DNA of 64,000 bases from assembly GCA_964016885.1 (NCBI GenBank), contig OZ024759.1, positions 26,536,001 through 26,600,000 on the forward strand. Direction: 5' to 3'. The notes beneath the pieces were generated by a model. The model made no database searches. It was given only the letters and a program-made list of their open reading frames with translations, and was not told the origin of the DNA. The position numbers and the translations under genes were made by a program. Below, piece after piece: positions 1 to 37,950 of this stretch (its first letter is position 1; every line of letters starts with the position of its first letter). This DNA is from Eledone cirrhosa. Its lineage: Eukaryota.

Positions 1-73
1 GAAGAAATCATCAGGAAACCTATGTATTGAGTACCTTACTTACTGTGGTTACCCCCAATTGAACCCAGGATAA

Positions 74-110
<37 letters not shown>

Positions 111-214
111 AACAGCTAACGGTGTCATATCCCAAGTAGCAGAAATAGTGTTGACTCGTATCGCCTACTCGCATTCTTCTTTTTTTTTATTATTATTAGG
201 ACGGAGGATCCAGA

Positions 215-380
215 GGGCGGTGGATTGGCAGTATCGGTAGAGAGTCGACCGCCATGCTTTCTAGCATGAGTTCAAATCCCGCCGAGGTTAACTTTGCCTT
301 TCATCCTTACGGGGTCGATAAAATAAAGTACTAGTAATGTACTGAGTAATTGGTGGCCTTGTGCCAAAAGTAGAAACAAT
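215..380 (+). mobile_element. tRNA-derived SINE family S1 (Meta/Sauria-like central domain), representative copy
   Basis: A-box-like tggcagtatcgg, B box gagttcaaatcc and core ttaactttgcctttcatccttacggggtcgataaaataaagtac. More than 20 copies in the window. Confidence 0.85.
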
Positions 381-1128
381 TATTATTTTCGTAATATTTA
401 TTTTATTTTGTATTTGGCTTTTTAAACTTTCTATTTGTCCACCATTTGTATTTAACCTTCTAGCAGTTCTGTTTCCTCTTTCTTTCATTGTTAAATCAAA
501 TTCTTTCTTTCTCTCTTTCTTTCTCTTTCTTTCTTTCTTTGTATCTTTATTCATTTATTTATTATCACATTCTCTTTCTTTACACTTGAGTCCTCTTTTG
601 TTTCTTCTTTTTTTCCTTTCTCTATTTATTCACTGCGTTTCTTTCACGTAGTCTTTTTTCAACATTTTCCCAGTAGCCTTTCTACTCAGTCGTTTGACTT
701 CATTTTCTTTCCTATGTTGTTTTAATTACCTCCTTCTATCCACCTCCAACTCATTCAATACAATTTCCTTCCTATGTTATACTTATTCTCTCAGGGCCTC
801 ATTTTTTATACATTATTTCACCTTCGTTTTCATATATTCATTCAGTTCACTGTCCACACATACATATCATCTCCACCAACGCCACAATATAACCACCATC
901 ACCATCATCACCATCATCATATCAATACATACATCTTCCTCTCCCCCTATCTCCCTTTTACAAACACTCATTCTCTTTCTCCCTCTCTCGCGCTCTCTTA
1001 AATTCATTTTTTCTTTCTCATACACCCTCCTTTTCTCTCTCTTACATACACTCTCCCTCCCTTAAATTCTGTTGTTTCTCTCCCAGACACACTCTCACAC
1101 TGTCTTACACTTTCTTTCTGTCACTCCA

Positions 1129-1193
<65 letters not shown>

Positions 1194-1317
1194 ACTATTT
1201 CTTTCATAAATGATATGGCACCAATCCTAGGGTACCGTTTGTAAATGAAAGTTGTTAAGTAAACGTTGGCAACAAAACCAACAGACAGTTAAGTTCAAAG
1301 TCCAAATAATGAGACAC

Positions 1318-1428
<111 letters not shown>

Positions 1429-1471
1429 AAAACAGAGAGTTTACAGTGCTGAGAACACAAATCATGGGTGT

Positions 1472-1505
<34 letters not shown>

Positions 1506-2528
1506 CAGTGAGCAATGTACACACCCTTCTATATACACATCACCCCACCACCATCAGCCACAAAATCAAACGTAGAATATAAAGACTTAAGATAAATACT
1601 CTCAAATATTTTCTACAGAGTTTTAACAATTTTGTCCTTCAACCTTCTTAATTATATCTCAATGAAACTATGTTATAGTGTTGTTGTTGCTGTTATTGTT
1701 GAGGATGTTTTGTTGTTGCTGTTTTTCATGATGTTGATAGTGATGTTGTTGTTGTTGATAATGGTGTTGATGTTATTGTTATTGTTTCTGATGATGATGA
1801 TAATGATATTTGTGACTATAATGTACATGATGTTGTTAATGATGCTGATAATGATGATGTTGATGATAATGATGATGTCGTGATATTTATAGTGATGATG
1901 TCGTGTTGGATGTAGATGATGCTGTTGATGATGATTCTTTTGATATTCTTGTTTATGTTGTTGTTGCAGCTGTTATTGTAGATGTTGTTGTAGATGTAAC
2001 ATAACCTATATAAATAAATAATTATCATATACTGGTATAGAGATCGATATTGACATAGTTATTATTTCGATTAGGAGGGCCCAATGGACGTGGTGTCCTC
2101 AGATCGATAATAAATTACTGAAATGGCATTGAATTACAACGTTTACATCGTTGAAGACCCATTTTAGCTATCTGAAACACACACACATATACCTACACAT
2201 ATACACGTACACACATACACACATACCTACATATATGTATACATACATACATACATACACAACTACACATATATACATACAGCTACACATACACATACAT
2301 ACACAACTACACATACACATACATACATACACAACTATAGATACATACATACATACAACTACACATACAACTACACATACATACATACAGTCAGTCAGTC
2401 AGTCAGACAGACAAAGGGCGAGTACGGTTTGTTTGGTTTGGCAGGAGTCAAGGGTATAGGTTGGAATTCACTTTAAGGTGCTTACCGGGGGGCAGGAGAC
2501 TAATTAGAGCAATAACGGTTTTATTTAC

Positions 2529-2577
<49 letters not shown>

Positions 2578-2580
<3 letters not shown>

Positions 2581-2765
2581 AAGGCGGGTAAAATTCTCGA
2601 TATCCATGGACGAGTTCTCTCCAGCGGTCTCTGTCCCTCATTATCGCTGCCATGTCCTGTGTCTCCAACAGACCAGTGTCTGTCCTTAGGGCATCAACAT
2701 ACGTTAACCTTGGTCTTCCTCTTCTAGTGTGTCCATGTAGGGGCTCCCTATGTAAATAAATTATG
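2578..2765 (-). mobile_element. RTE-X-like LINE 3' fragment
   Basis: Minus-strand EPLHGHTRRGRPRLTYVDALRTDTGL...RDRDRWR. A shorter copy at 9638-9730 abuts (TCTA)n. Confidence 0.65.
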
Positions 2766-2798
2766 GTTCATATATTGAAACTTAGAAAACACACACAA

Positions 2799-2840
<42 letters not shown>

Positions 2841-2912
2841 ATGTGTGTGTGTGTTTTCTAAGTTTCAATATATGAACCATAATTTATTTTCATTCTTCTA
2901 TAACATACATAT

Positions 2913-2963
<51 letters not shown>

Positions 2964-4554
2964 CATATGCGTATAAATAAGTGTATACATATATGTATAT
3001 ATATATACATATGTGTATACATATAAATATGTATATGTGTATACATATGTATATATATATATATATATTTGTATATGTATGTAATTATATATATTTGTAT
3101 ATGTATGTAATTATATATGTATATATATGTATATATATATATATATATTAGAAAGATCGAGTATCGAAAAATCGGCGCACGAGTTCACGATAAACGAAAT
3201 TCGATATATATATATATATGTATATATATGTATATGTATGTATATATATATGTATATATACATATATATGTAATAGACTCCAATATAGATGCACACACAC
3301 ATGCACGTTCGCACAAACTAGTACGTTTCACATTCAATTTTCATTTGAATTTTGAAGAAAATACCTTTACTTTTTATGAGATGCTACAACACAGGTTTAA
3401 CAATAACATGGTTGGACATTCTGAGCCCTATAAACCAACAAAGACGGGAACAATGTAAGACAGGTTTCGTAAAGGTGACATTGTCCACTTTCTGAAGACA
3501 CAACAACAACAACAACAACAAGAGTCACATTCTTTTGATTCTTCTAGTCAAGATAGAATGGCGGTATGTGTAAAGATAAAGTCTAAATCGAAGTTAATTT
3601 AAACTTTTTCTTAAGTAAATTACCCTACCGAGTGATTGCCTGAATCCTAAAATTCGTAGATTTTGGTATTGATTGACTACATCAAAATCTTTTACGCTGT
3701 GGTCGTTGACACAATCGAAAGATCAATAATCAATATTGAATTACTTTGCATTAGGTACAGTATAGTAAGAGATAAACAAGTTTATAGTGATAGGATTACG
3801 TGAGCAAATGGTGATTACCGCTCACAGCTCTATTACTGATGTCTATTAAGAAACTACGTTACTAGCTTCAGACAAAAAAAATATACAAAGACATTGAATA
3901 ATGTATCCTTAGATATACTGTGTTTCTGTGGTGGAGAAAATGAATTATCAGTTTTTAACTAATATTGGTGTGTATCTCTGTAAATTCTACTTTATTTAAA
4001 TGGGCGTCTGTTTGTATATATATATATATATATATAATTGGTATAAATCGATGTTGTTGCCGCGGTAGACCATAAATATACACACACACACACCCACACA
4101 TACATATATATATATATATGTGTGTATATATAAAATACCAGACCTCATTCGCTTAACGAGTGGGGTAAAGCTCGTCAAATCGGACGGAGGAAACAATGTT
4201 TCCCTTGGCCCTTCCAATTGCTAATAATATCTACTGGTGGCAAATCTGCACCATATATATATATATATATATAAAGAGAGAGAGATTTATATATCATATT
4301 TAAAATTCTGATTAGCTTACTTGCTTTTTACTCTTTATATATAGTGCAGATAATAAGGGTCTTTGTCCGTGATACGTAGAGGTTACCTTCTAACGCCGCC
4401 AGGATAAACCGGTTTAAGCAATCCAAAAGCTTTTCACGCCAGTCGTATATATATCTACCGATATGCTGGTGATTTGGTGTGACGGAGTTTCTATTTACGA
4501 AATGTTGCTAAGACTATGCAATAGATTAATTGTGTAAAAAGTAGCCAGCACCAA

Positions 4555-4774
4555 CAGTTTTGCAAGAAATGTCAACATGAATGGACTTGTTATTTTTATC
4601 TAAAGACATTTTTTCAAATTCCAACCCGCCCTCAATCTATCTCATTTCTCATTCTTTCTTCTGATGAAGGACTAGCGTCTGAAACCTTAAGACCCTGTTC
4701 CTGCTATATCAAGCGTTAACCTAATATATCCCTTCCATATACTGTACCGATTGTGTTGTTATTTCTGTTTACCT

Positions 4775-4780
<6 letters not shown>
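4555..4780 (+). mobile_element. Penelope-like element 3' end with hammerhead motif (family C)
   Basis: tctt CTGATGA aggac-tagc-gtct GAAAC ctt aaga at 4657-4692. The element ends in (TA)n; a second copy is at 18236-18463. Confidence 0.6.
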
Positions 4781-4805
<25 letters not shown>

Positions 4806-4806
<1 letters not shown>

Positions 4807-4992
4807 GCGGTGGTTTGGTAGTTTCGGTAGAGGGTCGGACGCCATGCTTTGCAGCATAGAGTTACACCCCTTTATGGTCTGAGTTCAAATCCCGCCGATG
4901 TTAATTTTGCCTTTCATCCTTACGGGGTCGATAAAATAAAGTACCAGAAATACACTGGTGTATTGCTGGCCTTGTGCCAAAGATAGAAACAA

Positions 4993-4993
<1 letters not shown>
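4806..4993 (+). mobile_element. SINE S1
   Basis: Full-length copy with the same core. Confidence 0.85.
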
Positions 4994-5032
<39 letters not shown>

Positions 5033-6229
5033 GTGTGTGTGTGTGTGTGTATTATTGTGCATATGTATGAATATGTCACGTCCTTTCTTTAGTCTTTTCA
5101 AATAAAATGTAGTCAGAGGTCTTTACCATCAAATATAACATCCCTCTCGTTTCGTCACAGAAATGGCTCATAGAGAGATTGGCAATCAATTGTCAGTCTT
5201 TATTCACTAGCAATTACTCATTATTTCATCATCATAAAATAAAGTACCAGTAATGTACTAGGTAATTGCTGGCCTTGTGCCAAAAGTAGAAACAATTATT
5301 TCATCATCCGGCGGCCTCAGCCGAAATCGTCTAAACAATTGATGTCCACGTGGGTATGTCGTTCATTGCCGTTGCCAAGTCCTGGATTTCAATACCAGAA
5401 CCTCTGGAGATGACATCGGGGTAGGAGTGCTTGCGCTCCCTGTTATTAGTGACTGTTTGTGGTTTCCAAAGCACTAATGGGGACACAGCCTCATAAGTGG
5501 CACGATGGCAGTGGCCAGCAAATTGGGATAGGAGAGCTTGCACCCCTGTTACTAGTGACTGCTTGTGGTTTCCAAAATACTAATGGGGACATAGCCTCAG
5601 AGGTGGCAAGATGGCAGTGGCCAGCAAATCTTACTCCTCTTTTACGTACAACGACAGATATGCGTGGGAGGCCGGCATATCTCTTTCTCAAAGTCAAATG
5701 TCACCAGCTTGTGTTTACTATTAATATTTACTCGTTGTTACGCTGCTCGACGTAGGATTCCTGGAAAGGCTACTATGTTGTGGTCTTGGGTAAAACACTT
5801 TATTTCACGTTGCTCCTCTACATTCAGCTGAAAGTTAGTACTAGTAGTAGCTGGTGAGTTAACCTTGCGACGGACTGGTGTCCTCTCCAAGGAGAGTCTT
5901 GTTCTCTCAGTTATTTTAAGCCAACCCCAAGGAAACGGGGAATTAGCACCGGTCTGATGAGCTTCCTGGCTCGAGACTGAGTTTAGACTTTTTAATGTGT
6001 ACTAATAAGAAAAGACTCCCTCCTGGCCAGGACTATACTCCATCGTAAAGTTAACCCACCGGCTATTGCTGGTACTTGTTTTTAGCTGAGTGTACAGGTG
6101 CGACGTGAAATAAAGTGTTTTGATTAAGAACACAACACACAACCCAGTCTAGGGATCAAAACCACGTTCAACACTCTTTCCACTAAATCACGTGCTTCCA
6201 CTTTCATTTATTAACCTTCACTCATTAAT

Positions 6230-6605
6230 AATTGTTTCTACTTTAGGCACAAGGCCAGCAATAACCCAGTACATTACTGGTACTTTATTTTATCTACCCC
6301 GTAAGGATGAAAGGCAAAGTTAACCTCGGCGGGATTTGAATTCAGACTGTAAAGGGACGTAACTATGCTAGAAAGCATGGCGTCCAACCCTCTACCGAAT
6401 GATTTCTAGTATAGGCACAAGGCCAGTGATTTGGGAGGAGGGGAATCGATTAAATCGAACCCAGTGGATTACTGGTGCTTTATTTTATCGACCCCGTAAG
6501 GAGGAAAGGCAAAGTTAACTTCGGCGGGATTTGAACTCAGACCAAAAGTTCTGTGCTGCAAAGCATGGTGTCCGACGCTCTACAGATACTGCCTATCCAC
6601 CGCCC
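6230..6605 (-). mobile_element. Two tandem SINE S1 copies
   Basis: Two reverse-complement cores (gtaaggatgaaaggcaaagttaacctcggcgggatttgaa). Confidence 0.85.
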
Positions 6606-7521
6606 TCCTTCACACATTAATAATACCTACTCTGGATTATTGGTTTTTATTCTGGATTAATAAGAAGTTTTCATTCAATTAATTATCATCACAGTTTCTC
6701 TCTTAGTGTGTTCTCTATACGAAAAGCTAGAATGCTTTGTCTTCGAATCAGTGAACATATAATTCCTAAGTGCACTGGCTAAACTACAGGCCTTGTATTT
6801 GGGAATGGAATAATTCAGCTGGGGCCTCCAGGTCTTAACTGGACACAAATCAAGTTACAGGAGGGAGACAAACAATCGATATATTAAAATGCATAGACAT
6901 AATAATAATAATACAAATAATACTCTTGATAATAATGATAACGCTCGGTAATGCAGTGATGATAATGATAATAATGCTAATAATAATAATGGAAAGTCCC
7001 CTTTTATTATTTACTAAATACTTTAGCTCAGGAATATGTCCCCTGTCGATGTAAAGACATTTAATGTTCAACAACTGCGCGATAGCAAGTCAACATCTAA
7101 TGCCTCATGTGGTAATGGATATATAATGCAGTTAGTTTTGATATTTAATTCAATCTGGATTCATTTGTATTCAGCATTTAAATTTCAGATTTCCCAACGG
7201 GGAAGAGATCTTCTGGAATATATTTTCATATTCATTTATATTTATCATATTAAACGTTCTATTTGTGATGCTGTCGTTTAGAGAATTGTGCAGGCGTTAA
7301 AGTGGAAATCAATTGGCGATGCTTTAATTGTAACAACGTTTATTGGTACTACTGATCGCAGCTCAGTGATATATATATATAAATACCTTAAGCCAGTGTT
7401 AATGCCTGATGGCTAAAAACGACTTGCCCTTTTTTTTTTAACGCCAGCCGACAAAATAGCCCCTCTACCTCCTTCCCACCCCACCCCTACCCCTCCTCAA
7501 CCTGAAACACGGCCACTATGG

Positions 7522-7551
<30 letters not shown>

Positions 7552-7554
<3 letters not shown>

Positions 7555-7745
7555 AGTTTATCCCGGGTTCAATCGGTGGTAACCACAGGAAGTAAGGTAC
7601 TCAATACATAGCAGAGTATAAATATTTAATATAGAAATAGCTTCTACAGGACTAGAATTGTTTCATTCGGGAGAAATCATTAGGTCTTTCTGAGCTCTTG
7701 CCGTTTCAACAGCTAGTTCCAATATGGAACTAGCTGACTCCTTGA
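7552..7745 (-). mobile_element. Family A element joined to a family B-related fragment
   Basis: Family A tail and hammerhead-like core at 7552-7685, followed directly by ctgagctcttgccgtttcaacagctagttcc-aatat-ggaactagctg. Confidence 0.55.
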
Positions 7746-7751
7746 TATATA

Positions 7752-7787
<36 letters not shown>

Positions 7788-8271
7788 CATCAATGATTCG
7801 TGTACGTCAGTAGTCGTCTTTTTCCCTTTCTTAGAAGGTTCTAAACCCCACTATCAGATGAAAATTTGTTTAGTCAAAAGATTACGGCGAAAGCTTGTAT
7901 TTCTAATTTCAAACTCGCTCGCTGTTTCAAAACAGACTTACTTTTCATATATATATATATATATATGTTCGACCTGTTTGTATATATCGATGTTGTATTA
8001 GGTTAACTTTGCCTTTCATCCTTACGGGGTCGATAAAATAAAGTACCAGTAATGTACTGTTGAAATTGCAGGCCTTGTGCCTAAAAGTAGAAACAATTAT
8101 TATCGCAACATGCTTTTCGTCGCTGTATTCTTCGATTCACACTTTATTAACTTCTTGTGGCTCCTCTGATAGAAAACGTATTTACTTTTCTCACATTGAG
8201 TGCTTTCACCTGCCTCAAACAATTCGGTTGGAATCTGCTATATTGCGGTTACAACTTCGATTTAACCACAT

Positions 8272-8276
<5 letters not shown>

Positions 8277-8317
<41 letters not shown>

Positions 8318-8867
8318 AATATATATATATATATATATAGTAAATGTATATATATATATATATAGTAAATGTATATATATATATATATAGTAAATGTATA
8401 TATATATATATATAGTAAATGTATATATATATATATATAGTAAATGTGTATATATATATATATATAGTAAATGTATATATATATATATATATAGTAAATG
8501 TGTATATATATATATATAGTAAATGTATATATATATATATAGTAAATGTATATATATATATAGTAAATGTATATATATATATATAGTAAATGTATATATA
8601 TATATATATATAGTAAATGTATATATATATATATATATATAGTAAATGTATATATATATATATATATAGTAAATGTATATATATATATAGTAAATGTATA
8701 TATATATATATATATAGTAAATGTATATATATATATATATATATAGTAAATGTATATATATATATAGTAAATGTATATATATATATATATAGTAAATGTA
8801 TATATATATATAGTAAATGTATATATATATATATATAGTAAATGTATATATATATATATAGTAAATG

Positions 8868-8920
<53 letters not shown>

Positions 8921-8957
8921 AATCTATATATATATATATATATATATATAGTAAATC

Positions 8958-8988
<31 letters not shown>

Positions 8989-8992
8989 AATC

Positions 8993-9023
<31 letters not shown>

Positions 9024-9027
9024 AATC

Positions 9028-9058
<31 letters not shown>

Positions 9059-9062
9059 AATC

Positions 9063-9093
<31 letters not shown>

Positions 9094-9127
9094 AATCTAT
9101 ATACATATATATATATATAGTAAATGT
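8277..9127. repeat. Minisatellite (TA)n-GTAAAT(G/C)
   Basis: Dozens of agtaaatg/agtaaatc motifs spaced by variable TA runs. Confidence 0.95.
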
Positions 9128-9346
9128 AAAGACTCCCTTCGGTCACGAATGACCATGGGATTTGTACCTAGAAAGTTCCCCTCCGAGGCACATGTCCGGG
9201 CAAGGTTGCTTGTGGAAGACCAGCAGTTGCCCATGCATACCAGTCTCCCCTCTCTACGCCACCAATGTCGTCCAAGGTGAAGGCAAAGGCCGATACAGCT
9301 TGGCACCAGTGAGGTCGCAATTGTTTTCTACAGCTGAATAAACTGT
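9128..9346 (-). mobile_element. SINE family S3 (RTE-like tail), partial
   Basis: Homologous to 58066-58310 (ggcaaaggccgatacagcttggcaccagtga). Confidence 0.7.
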
Positions 9347-9364
9347 AATAGAGAGTTAATAAAT

Positions 9365-9638
<274 letters not shown>

Positions 9639-11425
9639 AGGGCGGGTAAAATTCCCGAGAATCATGGATGAGTTCTCTCCAGCGGTGTCTGTCCTTCACT
9701 GCTATGTCTCGCGTCTCCCAGAGACAGATTCTAGTACCGTGCTGAATGAAGGACACAATGTGCCACCTCGTCTGGGTATCGAACCCAGAACTATACGATC
9801 CTTATCCCAGCTTTCTAACCACTTGAGTCTAGCGGTTAGACCAACATCTTTCACTTTATATTATTTCACAGTGAAAAAGAAAATTATTATTTAAATATGA
9901 TTAAATGATTCTAACTATTTAATGACAGAACAGATTAGTCTTAATTAATTCAGAAATAAAATAAAATAATCAATAAATAAAGTATTGAATGGTAATCAAA
10001 AGAAAAACAAAACAAAACAAAATAAAATCACAAGAAAACATTTCATAATTAATAAATAATTATGAAATGATGAATGAGAACAAAAACAACAACAACAGCA
10101 TACAAACACAAAGACACCGATGACGATGATGGTAATGATGATGAGGGTGGTGGTGATGGTGGTGAGAGTGATGAAGGTGAGAGTGATGGTGGTGATGGTG
10201 GTGAAGATGATGACGGTGATGGTGATGATTATGGTGATCGTGTTAATGTTGGTAGTGATGATAATGATGGTGATGGCGGTGATGTTGATGATAATGGTGG
10301 TGGGGATGAGGATGATGGTGATGAGAGTGAGAAAGGTGGTGAAAGTGATGGTGATGGAGACAGTAATGGTGGTGATGGTGGTGAGTGAGGAAGGTGGTGG
10401 TGGTGATGGGCACGATAAGAATCAAAGTGTAGAATCCGTTTGTGTCCATTGTTTTATTTTGTTTTTGTTTGTTTTTTGGGTTTTTTTTCGGAATCTGATC
10501 TTAACATTGATAACGAATTGACATACAGGTGACATACAATGATAGATCGATTATATCGATTTATACATTTTGTAGAGGGGGCGGCGGCAGAGGAGGAAGA
10601 AACTAAGTAGAAGAAAAGGAAATAGAAGAATGAAGAGAGGAAACGAATCAAGAAAAACAAGAGTTATTAGGTTGTAATAAATTAATTAGTAATACTTAAA
10701 TTACGTTATAATTAGGAATGTGTATGGAATTAATTGACAATTAATTAACTGGTTAACTGGAAGTTTAGAAAGTCAAGATTATTACACTGGGGGAGACATA
10801 CACACATTAAGGTACACACACACTCACACATTCAGATACTCACACACATACATTCAGATACACACGCACACACAAATACACAATTACACTCAGACTCATA
10901 CACACACACACTCATAAACAGAGACACGCACTCAAACACACTGAAGCACATACACTCAGACACGCGTACGACGCACACACACTCACAATACACACACATA
11001 CTCAGACACACACACATATACAAGCACAAACACACAAACACACAAACAGTAGTTGTTTCTCTTACAGAATACTAGCTTGAATAATAGTTTTACTGGTCTT
11101 ATAAGTGAACCGTTTCTGTTTAAGTTCATTATTCTCACTGACAAATAAAGACATTTATCTGTCTATCTATATGTCCCTCTTTATCTCTATCTATCTATCT
11201 CTCCCTCTATCTCTTTCTCTCATTCTCTCTCTATCTATCTCTTTCTCTCATTCTCTCTCTATCTATCTATCTCTGTCTCTCTCTCTCTCTGTAAGTGATA
11301 TTTCATGGTTTCAAACTTATTGTATGTTCTATATGATGTTTCATTTTTCATGTAAGATACCTAATTCACTATAGCAAGAATGATATCTCTGCTTCGGTGA
11401 ACAGAAAACATTTTATACTCATATC

Positions 11426-11456
<31 letters not shown>

Positions 11457-11459
11457 ATA

Positions 11460-11860
11460 TGTACATATGGCAGTGTCATGAATCTTGGGTAATGACCGAA
11501 AGAATAGGATCGCGAATACATGCGGCTGAAATAGGGTTCCTCCTAGGGGTCTTTGGAGTAATGCTATTCGATAGAGTGCGTAGCTCGGGGATTAGAGAGT
11601 CACTTCAATTAGAGCCGCTACTTCTCGGAATTGTGAGATCACACCTCCATTAAAATAGACATGTGTTTAGAATGTCTCTGGAAATAATCGCTGGAAAGAT
11701 TTTACATGCATATCCAGCTGACAAGAGACCTATGTGTAGACTCTAAGTATGATGGATGGATAACATCCACGAGCTTGGCTAGTTTCGCTCCGGGATCCAA
11801 CCAGATCAAATGGAGGCGTTTGGTACTCATGTCCCCACGATCCTCCTGGGATAGTTATCG
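11460..11860 (+). mobile_element. RTE-clade LINE fragment (decayed)
   Basis: HESWVMTERIGSRIHAAEIGFL...RVRSSGIRESLQLEPLL; stops follow. Confidence 0.75.
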
Positions 11861-11876
11861 AAAAAAATTATATATA

Positions 11877-11925
<49 letters not shown>

Positions 11926-11926
<1 letters not shown>

Positions 11927-12345
11927 GGATAAAATTTATTTGTTTAGATCAGTGTGAAAAAATAATTTAAAGCAAGTAAGATTGGGTACCAAAGTATTTT
12001 TCTCAATATGGTCCTTGTATGGGTTACAATAATAGTCCAAAAAGAGGGACTAAATTATAATATCCAGGTGGAAGATCACGGAGTAATAATATATTTAAAT
12101 TTATAGGAAAAACAAACACTAGGCGTGAAGTATAGAAAAGAAGTGAAGAATGTAATCAAAAGTTCATTCTTTAACACATGTTTCAATACAGTATAAGCCT
12201 AGGAGTTCTGGTTACATATTAATATTATTATGATGCCCATTCACTAGCAATACGTTAAATACTGCATTTCATCAGAAAGATTTCAAAGTTCGAGATTCTT
12301 CACTTCTTTTCTATACTTCATGCCTAGTTTTTGTTTTTCCTATAC

Positions 12346-12350
<5 letters not shown>
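11926..12350 (-). mobile_element. Fold-back element, family D
   Basis: Inverted arms at about 12096-12151 and 12295-12350 around the long-stem hammerhead; TA-flanked. Confidence 0.65.
12169..12279 (-). ncRNA. Type I hammerhead ribozyme motif with extended stem II (family D)
   Basis: Minus strand reads cttt CTGATGA aatgcagtat...(long insert)...atactgtatt GAAAC atgt GTT aaag. The base of stem II is 10 bp, stem III contains palindromic ACATGT, and the triplet is GUU (suboptimal). Confidence 0.7.
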
Positions 12351-12389
<39 letters not shown>

Positions 12390-12467
12390 GCACGCACATG
12401 TATATACAGAAAGAGAGAGAGAGAGAAATTTATACTGATACCTTCATTTCAAATGTTTTTGTATTTG

Positions 12468-12544
<77 letters not shown>

Positions 12545-12546
<2 letters not shown>

Positions 12547-12668
12547 CAAACAAAGTATGGTAAGATACCAGGTGAACCATAACGTACCAGAGTACTCGGT
12601 ACTTAGGATAGTAGAGTGGGATAATAGGAAAAGAGTAAGGACCCTGATTCTGGGGTCCTGAGTCTTTT

Positions 12669-12672
<4 letters not shown>
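12545..12672 (-). mobile_element. Fold-back element, family B-related subfamily
   Basis: Same tail (gtatggtaagataccaggtgaaccataacg...) with a short palindrome taggaaaagagtaaggaccc / ggggtcctgagtcttttccta. Confidence 0.65.
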
Positions 12673-12701
<29 letters not shown>

Positions 12702-13287
12702 TCTGCTTTCTGAGTATCAGTCTACAGTCTAGTACTGGGGCTGATTCTTCTTCTATATCTCTTTCTCATTTCCCTTCTCTCACTTTCTATCTTTCTCTGG
12801 AAGAAATATGCTGAACTCAGGCCTGGAGAGGGAAGGGCTCTGCCAGGCGTAAAATGCCCAAGAAACGCCATACGTCTCTATCAAGAGTTATGGGACCATA
12901 CATATATTCTGTATTTATCATTGTTGTTATATATGTATGGCCACTGCCTTCGGTCGATTTTCTTCGTGTCACACATTTTAACTGTTGTGTTTACTCTGTA
13001 CGGCAATGTATTAACATAACCGCTCTATCGAGTGCTTTGTTATTGCCTCAAACAACTCGAATAGTACCTGCTCGATTTATATTCATACCTAATATATATA
13101 TATATACATTCGGTATATAAGGATGAAATTCACATCTAGCACTCAACGTCATATTACTTCCTAAAAACAAGCATCACTGAGTATATTAATAAAGAGGAAA
13201 ATGCGAAGTTGAACGCTATATATATATATATATATATATAAGTAGAAGGGGTATTTAATTTGTTGGAAATCCGACAAATATAAATAT

Positions 13288-13564
13288 AAATGTTTATAAC
13301 TGATTTAGAGCACTCAACAAGTTCCTGGAGTAAATATTCAATGATATTAAATAAATGGAAACTATATTTATAAAACCATATTTATTTTTGACTACCCAGA
13401 GAATATCCAACTGATAAGGTATGATTTTCCTGGGTATGTCTCTATTTATAAAACAAACTTTGTATTTTATCTGAAGAAAGCGTACCAAAGTCTTTTGGTA
13501 CCCTTGAAATATATATAATAAAATAAATATGGTTTTATAAATATAGTTTCCATTTATTTAATAT

Positions 13565-13570
<6 letters not shown>
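13288..13570. mobile_element. Fold-back element, family E
   Basis: Inverted arms at about 13339-13390 and 13520-13569, with the hammerhead in between. Other copies at about 35340-35425, 42377-42589 and 47930-48175. Confidence 0.7.
13465..13523 (+). ncRNA. Minimal hammerhead ribozyme motif (family E)
   Basis: ttttat CTGAAGA aagcgtaccaaa-gtct-tttggtaccctt GAAAT atat ATA ataaaa: stems I and II pair, with an AUA triplet. Confidence 0.75.
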
Positions 13571-13607
<37 letters not shown>

Positions 13608-13825
13608 ACGTTCTATCATAGTGTTCTGTCCCAACCCAGGGCCTGAAACACTCACAAAAACGCGAATTTCCAACGCAATTTTTTTTCCTTCGTGAGGCTG
13701 TTCCTTTCAATGTTTTAAGTTCGTAAGTCGGATGTTCGTATGGTGGGGACTTACAATATAGGTGTTGGGTGGGGTTTAAAATGAGAACGTAAAGAACAGG
13801 AGTCAGTCCCACAAATTGCAATAAT

Positions 13826-14532
13826 AATTGTTTCTACTTTTAGCACAAGGCCAGCAATTATCCCAGTGCATTACTGGTACTTTATTTTATCAACCCCGTA
13901 AGGATGAAAGGCAAAGTTAACCTCGGCGGGATTTGAACTCATGCTGCAAAGCATGGCATCCAACCTTCTACCGATATTGCCAATCTACCAATAATTATAA
14001 TGGTTTGTGATTTAGGCACAAGGCCAGCAATTTTGGGGGAGGGGAAAGTCGATTAAATCGGCCCCAGTGTATTACTGGTGCTTTATTTTATCGGCCCCGT
14101 AAGGATGAAAGGCAAAGTTAACCTCGGCGGATTTGAACTCAGAGCTTAAACAGCCGTAACTCTATGCTGAAAAGCATGGCGTCCAACCCTCTACCGATAC
14201 TGCCAACCGTCAAAATGTTCAAAGATAGGACGCCATTGATATTGAATAAAACTTCTGACTAGCGTAATCACAGAAAACTGGTTCAAGCTGGTTTTGTTTA
14301 ATAGTAAAAGGCAAGTAATGCATTTGCTATTATGTAAGATACTTATATAATTGTTTCTACTTTAGGCACAAGGCCAGCAATCACCCAGTGCATTACTGGT
14401 ACTTTATTTTATCGATCCCGTAAGGATGAAAGGCAAAGTCAACCTCGGCGGGATTTGAACTCAGATCGTAAAGGGACGTAACTATGCTGGAAAGCATGGC
14501 GTCCGACCCTCTACCGATACTGCCAATCCATT
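13826..14532 (-). mobile_element. Three SINE S1 copies
   Basis: Copies at about 13826-13990, 14000-14210 and 14348-14532. Confidence 0.85.
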
Positions 14533-14669
14533 GCCCCTTACTTATATAATGATATAATATAAGACATCATTTTGAGACATAAAGGTATGTATGTGCGTAT
14601 ATTTATATGTATGTAGGATAGTATGTAGGTGTATATATGTATTTGTATGGACACATATATGTATGTATG

Positions 14670-14712
<43 letters not shown>

Positions 14713-14954
14713 ATATATATGCACGTATAAATATATACACATATATATATATATACATAAGCATGAATATGTGTATGCAGCTATATGTATGTATGTATAT
14801 ATATGTGCGTGTGTGTGTATATATATATGTGAATATATGTGGATATATGTGGATATATATGTGTATATATATAACTATACGTGTAAATATATGTGTATAT
14901 ATATAGAGAGATATAGATATACATACATATATACATACAGACATATATACATAC

Positions 14955-14987
<33 letters not shown>

Positions 14988-15210
14988 CGAACACACATAC
15001 ACACATGCTATAGTCGTGAATTTTGCTTAGCATTGTGGTTCTGAATTTTGTCACTGAAAGTTTATAAGTTGCGTTCACGTACACACGTACACACACACAT
15101 GCATATTTCTGTATACATATATCTGTCACCTGGTGCCTTTCGTTACACACACACACATACACACACATGCATATTTCTGTATACATATATCTGTCACCTG
15201 GTGCCTTTCG

Positions 15211-15274
<64 letters not shown>

Positions 15275-15617
15275 CCATATTTATGTAGCAAGATTGCGCT
15301 GTGCGTGTGTTTATATTGAAGTGATTGCATATAAAACTCTGCGTGTGTGTCTGTGACAGTGTATGTGTCTGTCTGTGTTTGAGAGTGCATCTGTCTGTGT
15401 GTGAATAACTAATATCGATTTTTCGTATTTGTCTTCGGTGTTGTTTTTGTTGTGTTTGATGTGTTTTTCATTCTTTCTCCGCTCACTCCTGTTAATAAGC
15501 AGTTCGTAGTCGTCTGTAACATTTTTACAGGTGTGTAAAAAGATAATTCAAAATAAAATGTTTTTACAGGTATGTAAAAAAAATAAAAATAAAATATTTT
15601 TGTTATTATTTACTCAC

Positions 15618-15752
15618 CTGTCGTGGTTCTGCTGCAGGTATGTTACTTCGCTTTCCCCCTATAGGACACGTTGTCCAGAAACAGCCTCTCACCAGAGGTA
15701 GAATCACCACCACAATTAAAAATGCGAAGATACTGTATTTCATACTTGCCAT
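15618..15752 (-). CDS. Coding exon 1 of an octopressin/sepiatocin-type (oxytocin/vasopressin family) prepropeptide
   Basis: Manual translation: MASMKYSIFAFLIVVVILPLVRG-CFWTTCPIG-GKR-SNIPAAEPRQ. This gives a 23-aa hydrophobic signal peptide, a Cys1/Cys6 nonapeptide with Pro7 and Gly9 (15683-15657), and a G-K-R amidation/cleavage signal. The exon ends CAG|GTGAGT (phase-0 donor), where vertebrate OXT/AVP intron 1 lies. It is too short for the ORF track. Confidence 0.96.
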
Positions 15753-15808
15753 GTTTTAGAAATGTAAAAGTGTGTCTTTCGGTTTGTGTTTTTTTTTTGT
15801 CTGTTTGT

Positions 15809-15820
15809 TTTTATATATAT
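15809..15820 (-). promoter_or_regulatory. Possible TATA box of the nonapeptide gene
   Basis: TATATATAAAAA lies about 57 nt upstream of the ATG, with no obvious acceptor in between. Evidence is weak because TA runs are everywhere here. An alternative TATATAA/CCAAT region lies at about 16350-16401. Confidence 0.25.
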
Positions 15821-16088
15821 TTGGCTTTTTCTTACAGAAGTTTTTAGGTATATATATATATGTGTGTGTGTGTCTGTGTGTGTATATACCTATATGAATT
15901 CTTTAGATATATATCTAATATATCTATATATATGTTTATGTATATATACTTGTATGAAGTATATAGATAGATAGATATGTAATATATATAACTAATAGCT
16001 ATCTACAATTGTAATAAAATCTATACCTATATACCTATATACATATATACATATGCATATATATATGTATGTATGTATATATGTATGT

Positions 16089-23136: not shown

Positions 23137-23154
23137 GTTTGTATGTATGTATGG

Positions 23155-23522
23155 GCCAGTCATTTGGAGGGAGGGGAAAGTCGATTAAATCGACCCCAGT
23201 ACTCCGTAAGGATGAAAGGCAAAGTTAAACTCGGCGGGATTTGAACTCAGAACGTAAAGGAGCGTAACTCGATGCTGCAAAGCATGGCGTCCGATCCTCT
23301 ACCGATACTGCCAATCCACCACCAATAATAATAATTGTTTCTACTTTAGGCACAAGGCCAGCAATTACCCAGTGCATTACTGGTACTTTATTTTATCGAC
23401 CCCGTAAGGATGAAAGGCAAAGTCAACCTCGGCGGGATTTGAACTCAGACCGTAAAGGACCGTAACTCGATGCTGCAAAGCATGGCGTCCGACCCTCTAC
23501 CGATACTGCCAATCCACCACCA
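23155..23522 (-). mobile_element. Two tandem SINE S1 copies
   Basis: Near-identical heads separated by (AAT)n. Confidence 0.85.
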
Positions 23523-24260
23523 ATAATAATAATGTTAATTCATTTTACACATTTTCTCAGATGAAATAATAACTAAAATATAATTTCTTTGGCAGAAAAT
23601 TCCATTTATTCTGCCTCAATTTTCATGAGAATTTTCAATTTTCTCGCCATTTTGTTTTTCTCACCATGCTGCAAAGCATGGTGTCCGACTCTATACCGAT
23701 ACTGCCAATCCACCGCATGAAATAGAGGGTGATAGAAAGAAAGTGAGAAAGAATGATAGAAGACGAATCGACATTAGTTGATTTTTGCACGAACTCGAAA
23801 ATATGAAAGGTGAAGATAAACGCGACGATATTTAGACTAAGCACACAAACAATCGGAATGACTACTACGTAGCATTCTATTGGACGATTCAAGGTTTTTG
23901 TCAATCCCCATCTCAGCAGTAGGAACTCCAGGTCAAATGTTTCAAAATGCTTCAGTCTTTTACTCGCCGTTTTTTCTTCCGAGGCACTTCTTTTGCCGAC
24001 AAGAGGACACCATGGCCAGAAACAAGCACAACGGTTACCAACATATAGATACTAAGTTTAAAACTCGCCATGTTTGGAAATATGAAACTTTGCTTGTGTA
24101 TTACTGAAGGCCCCTCTGTCTGATGAGCGAACTAGACGTATGTTAATACAGTCTAGGTTCCTGAAACCTTTGGTAATGGAGTAGTTATATATTGTGTTGT
24201 TCACTTACTAATTAAATATATTTATACGTATATATATATTAATGTATATAAATATATATA

Positions 24261-24675: not shown

Positions 24676-25760
24676 AGGCACAAGGAAGAGAGGGGTCGAT
24701 TAAATCAACCTCAATGATTTACTGGTATTTTATTTTATCGATGCCGTAAGGATGAATGTCAAAGATAACCTCGGCAGGTTTTGAACTCAGAACGTAAATA
24801 TTGGTTCTCGATTTAAGCACAAGGCCAAGAATGTTGGTGGGCGGGGAAAGTCGATTAAACTGACTGCAGTGTGTTACTGGTACTTTATTTTATCGACCAC
24901 ACTAAGGATGAAAATCAAAGCTAACCTCGGCTGGATTTGAAATCAGAACGTAAGTAATAAAAGAAATGCATTTTAGATGAGTGCTTAATTGAATCGCTTT
25001 AGACCCTTTAATCCGACATGTTTACAATGAGGATTAGAAAGAGTGTGGAGGTTAACTCGCACCTGTTTACATCCATATTTCTATTGAAATTTACTGTTTC
25101 ATATCCATATTTCTATTGAAATTTATAGAGAACCTGCGCATATGTGTGGACTTATGTATATAAGACTACAAAGTCTAATTCAACCCTGGTCTTATGATAT
25201 ATTACTTTTTTTTAAATTTAAAGTATTTTTATTCATCTATAAATATTTCATCACAATTCTATGCAGGACATCAGTTACTTTTCGTTCCAGCATTTTAATA
25301 ATGGTTTCTGGTTTAGCCATAAGGCCAGCAATTTGAAGGGAAGGGGAAAGTCGATTAAATCATCCCTGTGCGTGACTGATACTCTATTCTATCGACCCCG
25401 TAAGGATGAAAGGCAAAGCGAACCTCGGCGGGAATTGATCTCAGAGCGTTAAAGCCGCAAATCTATGCCGTGAAGCAGGGTGTCCGACGCTCTACCAATA
25501 CTGCCAATCCACCAACAGCATTTTAATAATAGTTTCTCATTGAGCTACAAGACCAACAATTTGGGGAGTGGAATCGATTAAATCGACCACAGTGCACTAT
25601 TGGTATTTTATGTGATCAACCCCGTTCAAATCCCGCCGAGAGTATCTTTGCCTTTGTTCCTGGTGGGGTCGATAATATAAAGTACCAGAAAAGTAGTGGG
25701 CGTCAATTTTATTAACACCCCTCTTCCCTTCAAATTAACCTTATGCCAGAATTAGAAACC
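24676..25760. mobile_element. Cluster of five SINE S1 copies
   Basis: Minus-strand copies at about 24676, 24800, 25300 and 25530; a plus-strand copy at about 25625-25760. Confidence 0.75.
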
Positions 25761-31860: not shown

Positions 31861-32084
31861 TATATATATATAGAGAGAGAGAGAGTGAGAGACGGTTTTA
31901 TTCGTACATGTTCATTTTATTATTTTATTATCTAATTATACTTATGCAAAGGTAGTTATGTAATAACCTCCCAGCACGTTTTCTTCAGATGAATCGTTTT
32001 TGTATCCATTGACAAGCTACTGGTTTAACATGTGAACATCGCTGTCCAGTACTCATATAACTGTATATATACATGATAATAATA

Positions 32085-32265
32085 ATTGTTTCTACTTTTG
32101 GCACAAGGCCAGCAATTACCCAAGTACATTACTGGTACTTTATTTTATCGACCTCGTGAGGATGAAAGGCAAAGTTAACCTCGGCGGGATTTGAACTCAG
32201 ATCATAAAGGGACGTAACTCTATGCTTCAAAGCATGGTGTCCGACTCTCTACCGATACTGCCAAA
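32085..32265 (-). mobile_element. SINE S1
   Basis: Same core and head. Confidence 0.85.
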
Positions 32266-32490: not shown

Positions 32491-32732
32491 CATTATTAAT
32501 ATTAATTGGCAGCATCGGTAGAGGGTCGGACAAGCTTTCCATATATATATGTATATTTGCTCTGATAGTTTGTAATATTTTTAAATAGATCTATATGATA
32601 TACATACCAACACACATATATATCCTAGAAACGATCGTAAAATGATGAATTTTTTAATATGAGGACCTTGTTCTTTGTTTTTATTCATAGTTTTTATTAT
32701 TTTATATAGATATATATATATATACACATATA

Positions 32733-32772
<40 letters not shown>

Positions 32773-32800
32773 TATTTATATATATATATATATACATATA

Positions 32801-32849
<49 letters not shown>

Positions 32850-32852
32850 ATT

Positions 32853-32913
<61 letters not shown>

Positions 32914-32928
32914 ATATTTATATATATT

Positions 32929-32961
<33 letters not shown>

Positions 32962-33279
32962 ATATTTATATATTTATATATATATATATATCTATATATT
33001 TATGTATACATATATATTTATATATATAGAGATTTATTTATATATATATAGATTTATATATATATATACATATATATTTATATATGTATATATTTATTTA
33101 TATATATATATATATATTTATTTATATATATATATTATATATAGATATATTTATATATAGATATATTTTATATATATATTTATTTATATATATATATTGT
33201 ATATATATTTATTTATATATGTATATATTTATATATGTATATATTTATATATATTTATATATATATATTTATATATATT

Positions 33280-33336
<57 letters not shown>

Positions 33337-33372
33337 ATTTATATATATATATATTTATATATATATATTATT

Positions 33373-33403
<31 letters not shown>

Positions 33404-33420
33404 TTATATGTATATATATA

Positions 33421-33517
<97 letters not shown>

Positions 33518-33574
33518 TTATATATATATATATATATTTATATATATTTATATATATATATATATATTTATATA

Positions 33575-33622
<48 letters not shown>

Positions 33623-33676
33623 TATATATATTTATATATTTATATATATATATATATTTATATATATTTATATATT

Positions 33677-33727
<51 letters not shown>

Positions 33728-33730
33728 ATT

Positions 33731-33825
<95 letters not shown>

Positions 33826-33852
33826 ATTTATATATATATATTTATATATATA

Positions 33853-33897
<45 letters not shown>

Positions 33898-33914
33898 ATT
33901 TATATATATATATT

Positions 33915-33969
<55 letters not shown>

Positions 33970-33984
33970 TTATACATATATATT

Positions 33985-34085
<101 letters not shown>

Positions 34086-34086
34086 T

Positions 34087-34126
<40 letters not shown>

Positions 34127-34181
34127 TATATATATATTTATATATATATATTTTATATATATATATTTATATATATATATT

Positions 34182-34216
<35 letters not shown>

Positions 34217-34231
34217 TTATATATATATATT

Positions 34232-34262
<31 letters not shown>

Positions 34263-34263
34263 T

Positions 34264-34299
<36 letters not shown>

Positions 34300-34323
34300 T
34301 ATATATATATTTATATATATATT

Positions 34324-34398
<75 letters not shown>

Positions 34399-34399
34399 T

Positions 34400-34581
<182 letters not shown>

Positions 34582-34631
34582 TTATATATATATATTATAT
34601 ATATATATTTATATATATATATTTATATATA

Positions 34632-34718
<87 letters not shown>

Positions 34719-34779
34719 ATATATTTATATATATATATATTTATATATATATATATTTATATTTATATATATATATATT

Positions 34780-34854
<75 letters not shown>

Positions 34855-34871
34855 TTATATATATATATATT

Positions 34872-34908
<37 letters not shown>

Positions 34909-34919
34909 ATATATTTATT

Positions 34920-34952
<33 letters not shown>

Positions 34953-35011
34953 ATATATATATTTATTTATATATATATTTATATATATATATATTTATAT
35001 ATATATATATT

Positions 35012-35046
<35 letters not shown>

Positions 35047-35058
35047 ATATATTTATAT

Positions 35059-35258
35059 GAACCAGTAAGACCCCGACAGCTGAGCTCAAGCCGTTTCGAC
35101 GGCTAATTCTGGATAATTGAGTCCAGAATTAGCCGTCGAAACGGCTTGAGCTCAGCTGTCGGGGTCTTACTGGTTCCTATTACCCACTCTACTACCTCAA
35201 GTATTGAGTACTTTGGTGCGTTATGGTCCACCTGGTTCCTTACCACATTTCCTTCGTT
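35059..35258 (+). mobile_element. Fold-back element, family B
   Basis: Near-identical to 17842-18034 in the opposite orientation; apex reads ggctaattctgga-taattgag-tccagaattagcc. Confidence 0.75.
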
Positions 35259-35267
35259 ATATATATT

Positions 35268-35303
<36 letters not shown>

Positions 35304-35604
35304 TATATATATATGCAAAAGTTTTATTTAAAATAGTTGGGTTACAAGTAAATATTTTATAACTGATATAAAGCACTCGATAAGTTATTGGAGTAGATAT
35401 ATAGTTTCTATTTGTTTAATATCGTATATATTTATATATATTTATATATATACATATATATTCATATATATATATATATATTTATATATATACATATATA
35501 TTTATATATATATTTATATATATTTATATATATACATATATATTCATATATATATATATATATTTATATATATACATATATATTTATATATGTATATATA
35601 TATG

Positions 35605-35636
<32 letters not shown>

Positions 35637-35863
35637 TATATATATATATTTACTTATATGTATATTTATATTTATATATATATATTTATTTATATATATT
35701 TATTCATATATATTTATGTATATATATATTTATATTTATATATATATATTTATTTATATATAAAAACTATATATTTATTTATATATAAAATCTATTTATA
35801 TATATTTATGTATATATATATTTATTTATGTATATATATATTTATTTATATATATATATATTT

Positions 35864-36067
35864 AGCGAGGGAAAAGTGGTAAGGAACCAGGTGGACCATA
35901 ACGCACCAAAATACTCAATACTTAGGGTAGTAGAGTGGGTAATAGGAGTAAGTAAGACCCCGACGGCTGAGCTCAAGCCGTTTCGACGGCTAATTCTGTA
36001 CTCAATTCTGTACAGAATTAGCCGTGGAAACGGCTTGAGCTCAGCCGTCGGGTCTTACTTACTCCTA
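35864..36067 (-). mobile_element. Fold-back element, family B
   Basis: Same tail plus palindrome; apex contains a duplicated aattctgtac. Confidence 0.75.
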
Positions 36068-36362
36068 TATATATATATTTATATATTTATATATATATAT
36101 ATTTATATATTTATATATATATATATTTATATATTTATATATTTATTATATATATTTATATATATTTATATATATATATATTTATATATATATATATTTA
36201 TATATATATATTTATATATATATATATTTATATATATATATATATATTTATATATTTATATATATATATATATAAATATATATATATATATTTATATATA
36301 TATATATTTATATATATATATATTTATATATATATACATTTATATATATTTATATATATATT

Positions 36363-36393
<31 letters not shown>

Positions 36394-36410
36394 ATTTATA
36401 TATTTATATT

Positions 36411-36441
<31 letters not shown>

Positions 36442-36442
36442 T

Positions 36443-36473
<31 letters not shown>

Positions 36474-36572
36474 TTATATATATATATATATTTATATATA
36501 TATTTATATATATATTTATATTTATATATATATTTATATATATATTTATATTTATATATATATTTATATATT

Positions 36573-36603
<31 letters not shown>

Positions 36604-36608
36604 ATATT

Positions 36609-36641
<33 letters not shown>

Positions 36642-36654
36642 ATATTTATATATT

Positions 36655-36687
<33 letters not shown>

Positions 36688-36696
36688 ATATTTATA

Positions 36697-36765
<69 letters not shown>

Positions 36766-36778
36766 ATATTTATATTTA

Positions 36779-36811
<33 letters not shown>

Positions 36812-36884
36812 ATATATATTTATATATATATATTTATATATATATATTTATATATATATATTTATATATATATATTTATATATT

Positions 36885-36918
<34 letters not shown>

Positions 36919-37039
36919 TATATATTTATATATATATATATATTTATATATTTATATTTATACATATATATATATATATATATATTTATATGTATATTTA
37001 TATATATATATATATATATTTATATATAAATAAATGAGA

Positions 37040-37230
37040 AGGACGGTGAATTGGTAGTATCGGTAGAGAGTAGGACGCTATGCTTTGACGAATAGAGTTG
37101 CGGCCATTTATGGTCTGATTTCAAATACCGCCGAGGTTAATTTTGCCTTTCATCCTTACGGGGTCGATAAAATAAAATTCCAGTAATATACTGGGTATTT
37201 GTTGGCCTTGTGCCAAAAGTGTAAACAATG
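37040..37230 (+). mobile_element. SINE S1
   Basis: Same core and head. Confidence 0.85.
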
Positions 37231-37644: not shown

Positions 37645-37702
<58 letters not shown>

Positions 37703-37842
37703 TGTATGTATATATATATATACATATATATATATGTATATATATATGTATACATATATATATACATATATATATATGTATATATATACGTATATATATA
37801 TATATGTATATATATATATGTATATATATATGTATATATATG

Positions 37843-37873
<31 letters not shown>

Positions 37874-37950
37874 GTATATATATGTATATATATGTATATA
37901 TATATGTATATGTATATATATGTATATATATGTATATATATATGTATATG

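Follow-up and report, generated by a model that had tools for sequence, protein, structure and literature searches.

Are octopressin and cephalotocin, the two vasopressin/oxytocin (VP/OT)-type peptides of octopuses, encoded by two genes or by one gene with alternative first exons? The available portion of one review describes the octopressin and cephalotocin of Octopus vulgaris as products of two genes with a single coding exon each (PMC7181382), and that of another refers to the octopus VP/OT genes as 'duplicated' (PMC6062618). The whole stretch of DNA analysed here (the window, 64,000 nt) carries one intact and one broken peptide exon of this family, arranged in tandem with no neurophysin between them.

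The intact exon is on the minus strand, where 15752-15618 is free of stops and translates as MASMKYSIFAFLIVVVILPLVRG-CFWTTCPIG-GKR-SNIPAAEPRQ, with the donor GTGAGT directly after. The earlier note had placed an exon with a signal peptide, CFWTTCPIG and GKR at 15618..15752; these coordinates are right, and the strand, which it did not name, is minus. The features of the exon, in the direction of reading, are:

15753..15775, minus strand: 5' untranslated part covered by the spliced contig of run X4 (piece 15618-15775); this is the covered part, not the true 5' end.
15684..15752, minus strand: predicted signal peptide of 23 codons (hydrophobic core and homology).
15657..15683, minus strand: nonapeptide CFWTTCPIG, with residue 5 encoded by ACG (Thr) (translation; contigs of runs X1, X2 and X4).
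15648..15656, minus strand: GKR, amidation donor and convertase site (translation).
15618..15647, minus strand: 10-aa spacer SNIPAAEPRQ of Octopus type (compared with Octopus, 9/10, and Sepia, 7 aa).
15612..15617, minus strand: splice donor GTGAGT, phase 0, exactly where the spliced X4 contig departs from the window.
1..15617, minus strand: opening part of the first coding intron (15.6 kb or more), with the neurophysin exon past the window start or in an assembly gap (no neurophysin match in the window).

The predicted signal peptide, with a Kyte-Doolittle 9-mer peak of 3.76, directly precedes a nonapeptide that has the Cys1, Cys6, Pro7 and Gly9 typical of the VP/OT family and a Phe2-Trp3-Thr4 ring, not the x-Arg4-Asn5 of the cephalotocin type. 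This nonapeptide is identical to sepiatocin at 9/9 positions, to octopressin at 8/9 and to cephalotocin at 5/9. The motif C-x4-C-x3-G-[KR][KR] is found twice in the six frames of the window (in the exon and in its broken paralogue) versus 8 times in 300 locally shuffled windows, and a tblastn search of the window with the O. vulgaris precursor (P0009) gave 80% over residues 1-45 with an E value of 1e-21; the exon match is beyond chance. That the exon is missing from the track of open reading frames is ordinary, because it is only 45 codons long, lacks its own stop and ends in a donor. Searched alone, the window peptide (P0001) gave no Pfam family, no homologue among longer or near-length proteins and only irrelevant matches in the PDB; its Atlas neighbours are other neuropeptide precursors, with scores below 0.9 that make them leads only.

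Public sequencing runs from one study were aligned to 15400-15850: X1 and X2 (one sample, possibly the source of the assembly), X4 (a second sample) and X5 (RAD). These are four of the seven runs listed, and none of them is recorded as RNA. Run X5 has no reads on the exon region. The contigs of X1 and X2 match through exon and intron, in the unspliced form only, and agree with the window at every letter of the exon. The sole listed difference near it is an intronic T>G at 15599 in X2, within the region of a 39-nt tandem duplication just inside the intron (15521-15601), where CCTGTAAAAA (minus strand) occurs twice. Run X4 yields one 463-nt contig (depth 45.7) that covers 15618-15775 with no differences, departs from the window exactly at the donor and continues from 15618 as a 202-nt loose end. 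The first 30 letters of this end, the only ones displayed, give C K S C G A N G E G when the minus strand is translated by hand. At its other end the contig has 103 further upstream letters beyond 15775, in a stretch skipped as repeat; for this reason a TATA-like element some 60 nt ahead of the ATG is unsupported as the promoter.

A joined exon 1-neurophysin form therefore exists. The earlier note had allowed that there might be no spliced transcript containing neurophysin; the X4 contig joins the exon to the start of a neurophysin, and we infer that X4 is cDNA-derived. The contigs carry no information on expression level. The 202 nt amount to 67 codons plus 1 base, which is the length that the genomic read-through P0010 implies for exon 2; phase 1 is thus implied at the end of exon 2, while phase 0 at the exon-1 donor is seen directly. 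A phase-0 intron followed by a phase-1 intron is the gene structure given for the family in the accessible parts of PMC10532012 and PMC2656470, and the three-exon VP/OT gene of bilaterians (vertebrates, amphioxus, echinoderms) has the same order of signal peptide, nonapeptide, GKR and neurophysin and the same phase-0 first intron. The X4 contig ends after exactly 202 neurophysin letters, at the expected end of exon 2, which hints at a fork there, with two alternative last exons or intron retention; the four O. bimaculoides RefSeq isoforms would fit a 2 x 2 scheme of this kind.

No match to neurophysin was obtained in the 64-kb window by tblastn with six precursors or by a motif scan, so the first intron is longer than 15.6 kb or crosses an assembly gap. 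With a donor after codon 45 and the junction in X4, the gene in the window is not single-exon, and the description 'single exon' is contradicted for this species. Kanda et al. 2003 is reportedly the source cited for the single-coding-exon genes of O. vulgaris. The intron of at least 15.6 kb contrasts with the O. vulgaris genes, which are termed single-exon in the available portion of PMC7181382.

A phmmer search with the window peptide against 1.84 billion representatives returned three proteins, of which P0002 is the one real match (E 9.6e-7); P0003 and P0004 were dropped as homologues, being repeat-derived chance matches. The cluster of P0002 includes the Sepia sepiatocin precursor AHH31546.1, and its neurophysin domain (PF00184) starts at residue 44. 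Searching with P0002 led to an Octopus cluster with O. vulgaris CAI9739012.1, O. sinensis XP_029649633.1 and O. bimaculoides XP_014771381.1 and XP_014771397.1. The window peptide is identical at 36/45 positions to the octopressin precursors CAI9739012.1 and XP_014771397.1, in an alignment that stops just before the neurophysin Cys; the corresponding values are 27/45 for Sepia, 24/45 for the Sepia-like P0008 and 13/45 for the cephalotocin precursor. The Octopus octopressin precursor shares with it a 23-aa signal peptide, the nonapeptide followed by GKR, a 10-aa spacer and a neurophysin junction at the same residue, and differs in having Ser5 where the window has Thr5. The S. officinalis precursor AHH31546.1 has the same mature peptide, CFWTTCPIG-NH2, but the decapodiform sepiatocin layout of a 26-aa signal peptide and a 7-aa spacer, which the window exon does not have. 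Identity is 16/23 to O. vulgaris versus 11/23 to Sepia in the signal peptide, and 9/10 versus 4/10 in the spacer. In a six-row tree the window peptide and O. vulgaris are joined at 98/99, and the cephalotocin row forms a very long branch. The first ten residues of neurophysin in the X4 contig, translated by hand, agree with Octopus at eight positions and with Sepia at five; they begin C-K-S-C-G-A, where the Octopus octopressin precursor has C-M-S-C-G-P. On these comparisons, the exon is likely an octopressin orthologue with Thr5 from an octopod outside Octopus proper. The earlier note's assignment to the oxytocin/vasopressin family agrees with the precursor matches and with the neurophysin junction, and its guess of an octopod is borne out by the signal peptide, spacer, tree and neurophysin start, all of which are nearer to Octopus than to Sepia.

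The broken twin of this exon occupies 24071-23968, 8.3 kb upstream on the same strand:

24025..24071, minus strand: 5' part of the paralogous exon, with an ATG in homologous context, MASFKLSIYMLVTVV (translation, DNA alignment).
23968..24024, minus strand: 3' part of the paralogous exon, CFWPWCPLV-GKR-SASEEKT (tblastn, DNA alignment).
23962..23967, minus strand: donor-like GCGAGT (GC for GT) at the homologous phase-0 position (DNA alignment).

The DNA alignment of the twin with the intact exon starts in the 5' flank, takes in the ATG and reaches the donor, and has gaps of 22 nt in the signal peptide and 9 nt in the spacer. Its score is 76.2, whereas 1000 shuffles reached 44.4 at most; of 1750 tiles, the three with the best non-self scores all fall on the twin. 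The tblastn raw score at this site is 71 for the Sepia exon-1 peptide (maximum 59 in 200 shuffles) and 57 for the Octopus peptide (maximum 55 in shuffles). From the ATG to Cys1 there are 47 nt, versus 69 in the intact exon, so that the ATG is out of frame with the nonapeptide; an in-frame signal peptide and a GT donor, the marks of a functional exon, are thus absent from the twin in the assembly sequence. Over 28 codons compared with the intact exon, pS is 0.65 and pN is 0.23 (Fisher p 0.002), a comparison biased by the discovery of the twin through conserved residues; all three GKR codons differ synonymously. The signal part is nearer to the octopod exon (scores of 35 and 32 vs 23 and 28), the 7-aa spacer to decapodiform precursors (71 and 68 vs 58 and 57), and the Sepia-type spacer resembles that of the twin more than that of the intact exon. 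We read the twin as a putative ancient copy of exon 1 which was functional while it diverged and has since been disabled; its lesion could also be allelic or an error of the assembly. The lack of neurophysin between the two exons fits a duplication of exon 1 alone. The nonapeptide frame of the twin (23635-24051, minus strand) is open for 138 codons from stop to stop, some 117 of them past GKR, which is unusual for non-repeat DNA with this composition; its stop-free length rates ~6e-4 by composition, a post hoc figure. Pfam had no match for this frame, and Atlas no lead (0.76, recognition 943).

Residue 5 was the centre of the earlier note, whose sequences of octopressin (CFWTSCPIG-NH2) and sepiatocin (CFWTTCPIG-NH2) match those in the accessible part of PMC7181382. 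The reads do not turn the window residue into Ser: its codon is ACG (Thr) in the contigs of X1, X2 and X4. Thr is found in the window and in the Sepia cluster, Ser in O. vulgaris and O. bimaculoides, and Ala in P0008. Parsimony by hand on the tree ((window, Octopus), (Sepia, P0008)) requires two changes if Thr is ancestral and three if Ser or Ala is. The proposal that Thr5 is ancestral and Ser5 lineage-specific is in this respect the most parsimonious by one step; what weakens it is the small number of taxa (five lineages), a position that is evidently labile, and strict orthology with the Sepia exon, which is uncertain because of the paralogous exon. The opposite polarity, with Ser5 ancestral in octopods and Thr reverted or independently gained in the window species, concerns this residue only and is compatible with our preferred explanation of the gene. 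Thr, Ser and Ala all occur among the five lineages, each one nucleotide from ACG, and the TGG of the paralogue would be one step from the Ser codon TCG and two from ACG; the paralogue has nonetheless diverged enough for two changes within one codon, and with the extra change that it requires we regard an ancestral Ser5 as unlikely. A Thr/Ser exchange probably alters little, and a small effect of such exchanges is the reason given in the available text of PMC4585917 for using O. vulgaris peptides across species. The nonapeptide of P0008, CFWTACPIG, has Ala5, a variant absent from the literature consulted for comparison; one may speculate that it reflects a genomic Thr->Ala change or A-to-I recoding.

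The architecture of the gene is best approached through the Octopus database records. In RefSeq, O. bimaculoides XP_014771381.1 is isoform X1, with CYFRNCPIG, and XP_014771397.1 is isoform X3, with CFWTSCPIG; the two are identical at 101/101 residues after the position of the window exon's junction, the C-terminal tail included. The 'conopressin/neurophysin-like' isoforms X1-X4 would accordingly place differing first segments on one identical neurophysin, with the switch at the window exon's donor, as judged from protein records rather than exon coordinates and from two of the four O. bimaculoides isoforms. All four are listed in supplements 1 and 3 of PMC10172372; in tree label order (labels, not branches) the supplements of that paper place the Sepia precursor pair adjacent and the Todarodes pair adjacent. 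The O. sinensis model XP_029649633.1 starts one residue past the junction. For O. bimaculoides, the database contradicts 'two genes' and implies alternative first exons of one gene. The O. bimaculoides locus differs from the window in that the cephalotocin exon is absent from the latter, tblastn of the 64-kb window finding no cephalotocin-type first exon within 48 kb upstream or 15.6 kb downstream of the exon, and in that no third, Trp3-type exon is present among the two isoforms compared.

A one-gene model for the window species may be inferred from these Octopus isoforms. We think it probable that the exon is an octopressin-type first coding exon, from an octopod outside Octopus proper, that is joined in phase 0 to neurophysin and is one of several tandem alternative first exons with shared neurophysin exons. 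Against this stands the reading of a stand-alone, three-exon octopressin gene with a separate cephalotocin gene, in which gene conversion or strong selection would account for the identical neurophysins. Such identity has a precedent in exon 2 of the vertebrate VP and OT genes, at 95-98% (PMC2656470, in the part available), and two genes are what the accessible text of the reviews describes (PMC7181382, PMC6062618). The window also has no cephalotocin exon, and the X4 contig passes the exon 1/exon 2 junction without a break, so that this sample gives no hint of another first exon. The 101/101 identity in O. bimaculoides nonetheless extends through the last-exon tail, which differs strongly between Sepia and Octopus (57/101 identical, ungapped), RefSeq names both precursors as isoforms (X1, X3) of one gene, and the two tandem peptide exons of the window have no neurophysin between them; we consider separate genes improbable. 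Vertebrate VP and OT arose by duplication of a whole gene, whereas in the window lineage exon 1 alone seems to have been multiplied.

It is very improbable that the joined contig is an intron-free retrocopy in DNA, so that the intron-bearing exon need not be expressed. The library type of X4 is not on record, and a retrocopy would explain the single-exon genes reported in the available part of PMC7181382 as well; yet the X4 contig is identical to the window exon and has no intron-side coverage there, and X4 is a small assembly (87.8 M letters) with a depth of 45.7 at this contig, while the large X1 and X2 show the unspliced form only. That the animal is a decapodiform and the exon ordinary sepiatocin, a prospect raised by the earlier note and favoured by the complete match to the Sepia nonapeptide, is scarcely credible given a signal peptide of 23 and not 26 aa, a spacer of 10 and not 7 aa, the grouping with O. 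vulgaris and the octopod-like neurophysin start.

With one gene and alternative first exons as the preferred reading, its working can be outlined from knowledge of the family. The signal peptide would be removed, GKR cut and the product amidated, and the Cys1-Cys6 ring closed to give CFWTTCPIG-NH2, with neurophysin carrying the peptide into secretory granules; released as a neurohormone, it would act through the octopressin receptor, and its effects would be myotropic and osmoregulatory, like those reported for octopressin and sepiatocin in the accessible parts of PMC7181382 and PMC4585917. By analogy with the Octopus isoforms, each peptide exon may have its own promoter, with the choice of first exon by cell type, and not duplication of the full gene, setting the nonapeptide. 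New peptides would arise by duplication of exon 1 only, exon birth and loss changing the repertoire, and the 24-kb copy would be one of these duplicates, at first diverging under constraint and afterwards disabled.

The rest of the window is AT-rich animal DNA, 43% of it masked as tandem repeat. An abundant SINE-like repeat of ~190 nt, which presumably resembles Octopus SINEs, has tRNA-type A- and B-box-like motifs, an optional internal segment of ~30 nt and up to 17 overlapping self-matches; a text search of the literature with its motif found no paper and no tie to a taxon. Its self-matches include:

213-390, SINE-like repeat.
4805-4992, SINE-like repeat.
6400-6607, SINE-like repeat.
14010-14536, SINE-like repeat.
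23154-23534, SINE-like repeat.
25310-25520, SINE-like repeat.
32073-32263, SINE-like repeat.
57043-57231, SINE-like repeat; others occur.

Some 6 kb at 32700-39100 have a GC content of 10-12% and are nearly pure AT microsatellite. The GC-richer, non-repetitive blocks at 39126-40103 and 41897-44331 (0.41-0.51), with frames of up to 423 codons, are possibly decayed transposon sequence; eleven GC-richer frames in the window gave no Pfam family. No tRNA and no Rfam match was found in the window.

The peptide itself is known and the gene is an expected orthologue, and the RefSeq records already imply the alternative-exon layout. No paper on a one-gene, alternative-exon model or on an octopod Thr5 peptide was found in a search of mainly open-access literature, which did not extend to the three primary 2003 and 2013 papers, the 2016 Sepia neuropeptidome and bioRxiv supplements. 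The earlier note missed the gene architecture and the twin exon, both of which matter more than residue 5; Thr5 alone is a small phylogenetic footnote to a peptide already known as sepiatocin.

If octopressin and cephalotocin share one set of neurophysin exons, whole-precursor trees would group by species and not by peptide, and neurophysin probes could not separate the two transcripts. The available text of PMC5736919 gives a 'cephalotocin' qPCR primer pair and a conflict that its authors state and leave unreconciled. Compared with P0009, P0012 and P0013, both of these primers translate into the neurophysin segment common to the two precursors; the assay as given there probably picked up the two transcripts together, and this would account for the conflict. 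The two peptides of octopuses are cited as intron-free and as a parallel to the VP/OT duplication of vertebrates; should one gene supply both through alternative first exons, this parallel is mechanistically different. The twin exon is a concrete candidate for a third peptide, CFWPWCPLV-amide. It is possible, although we hold this only tentatively, that coleoids never had a VP/OT gene duplication like that of vertebrates and instead have one neurophysin gene with a tandem cassette of first exons that are born and lost, in which case the 24-kb exon may be the trace of a third hormone of octopods, CFWPWCPLV-amide, which relatives or other alleles of this species would still have intact.
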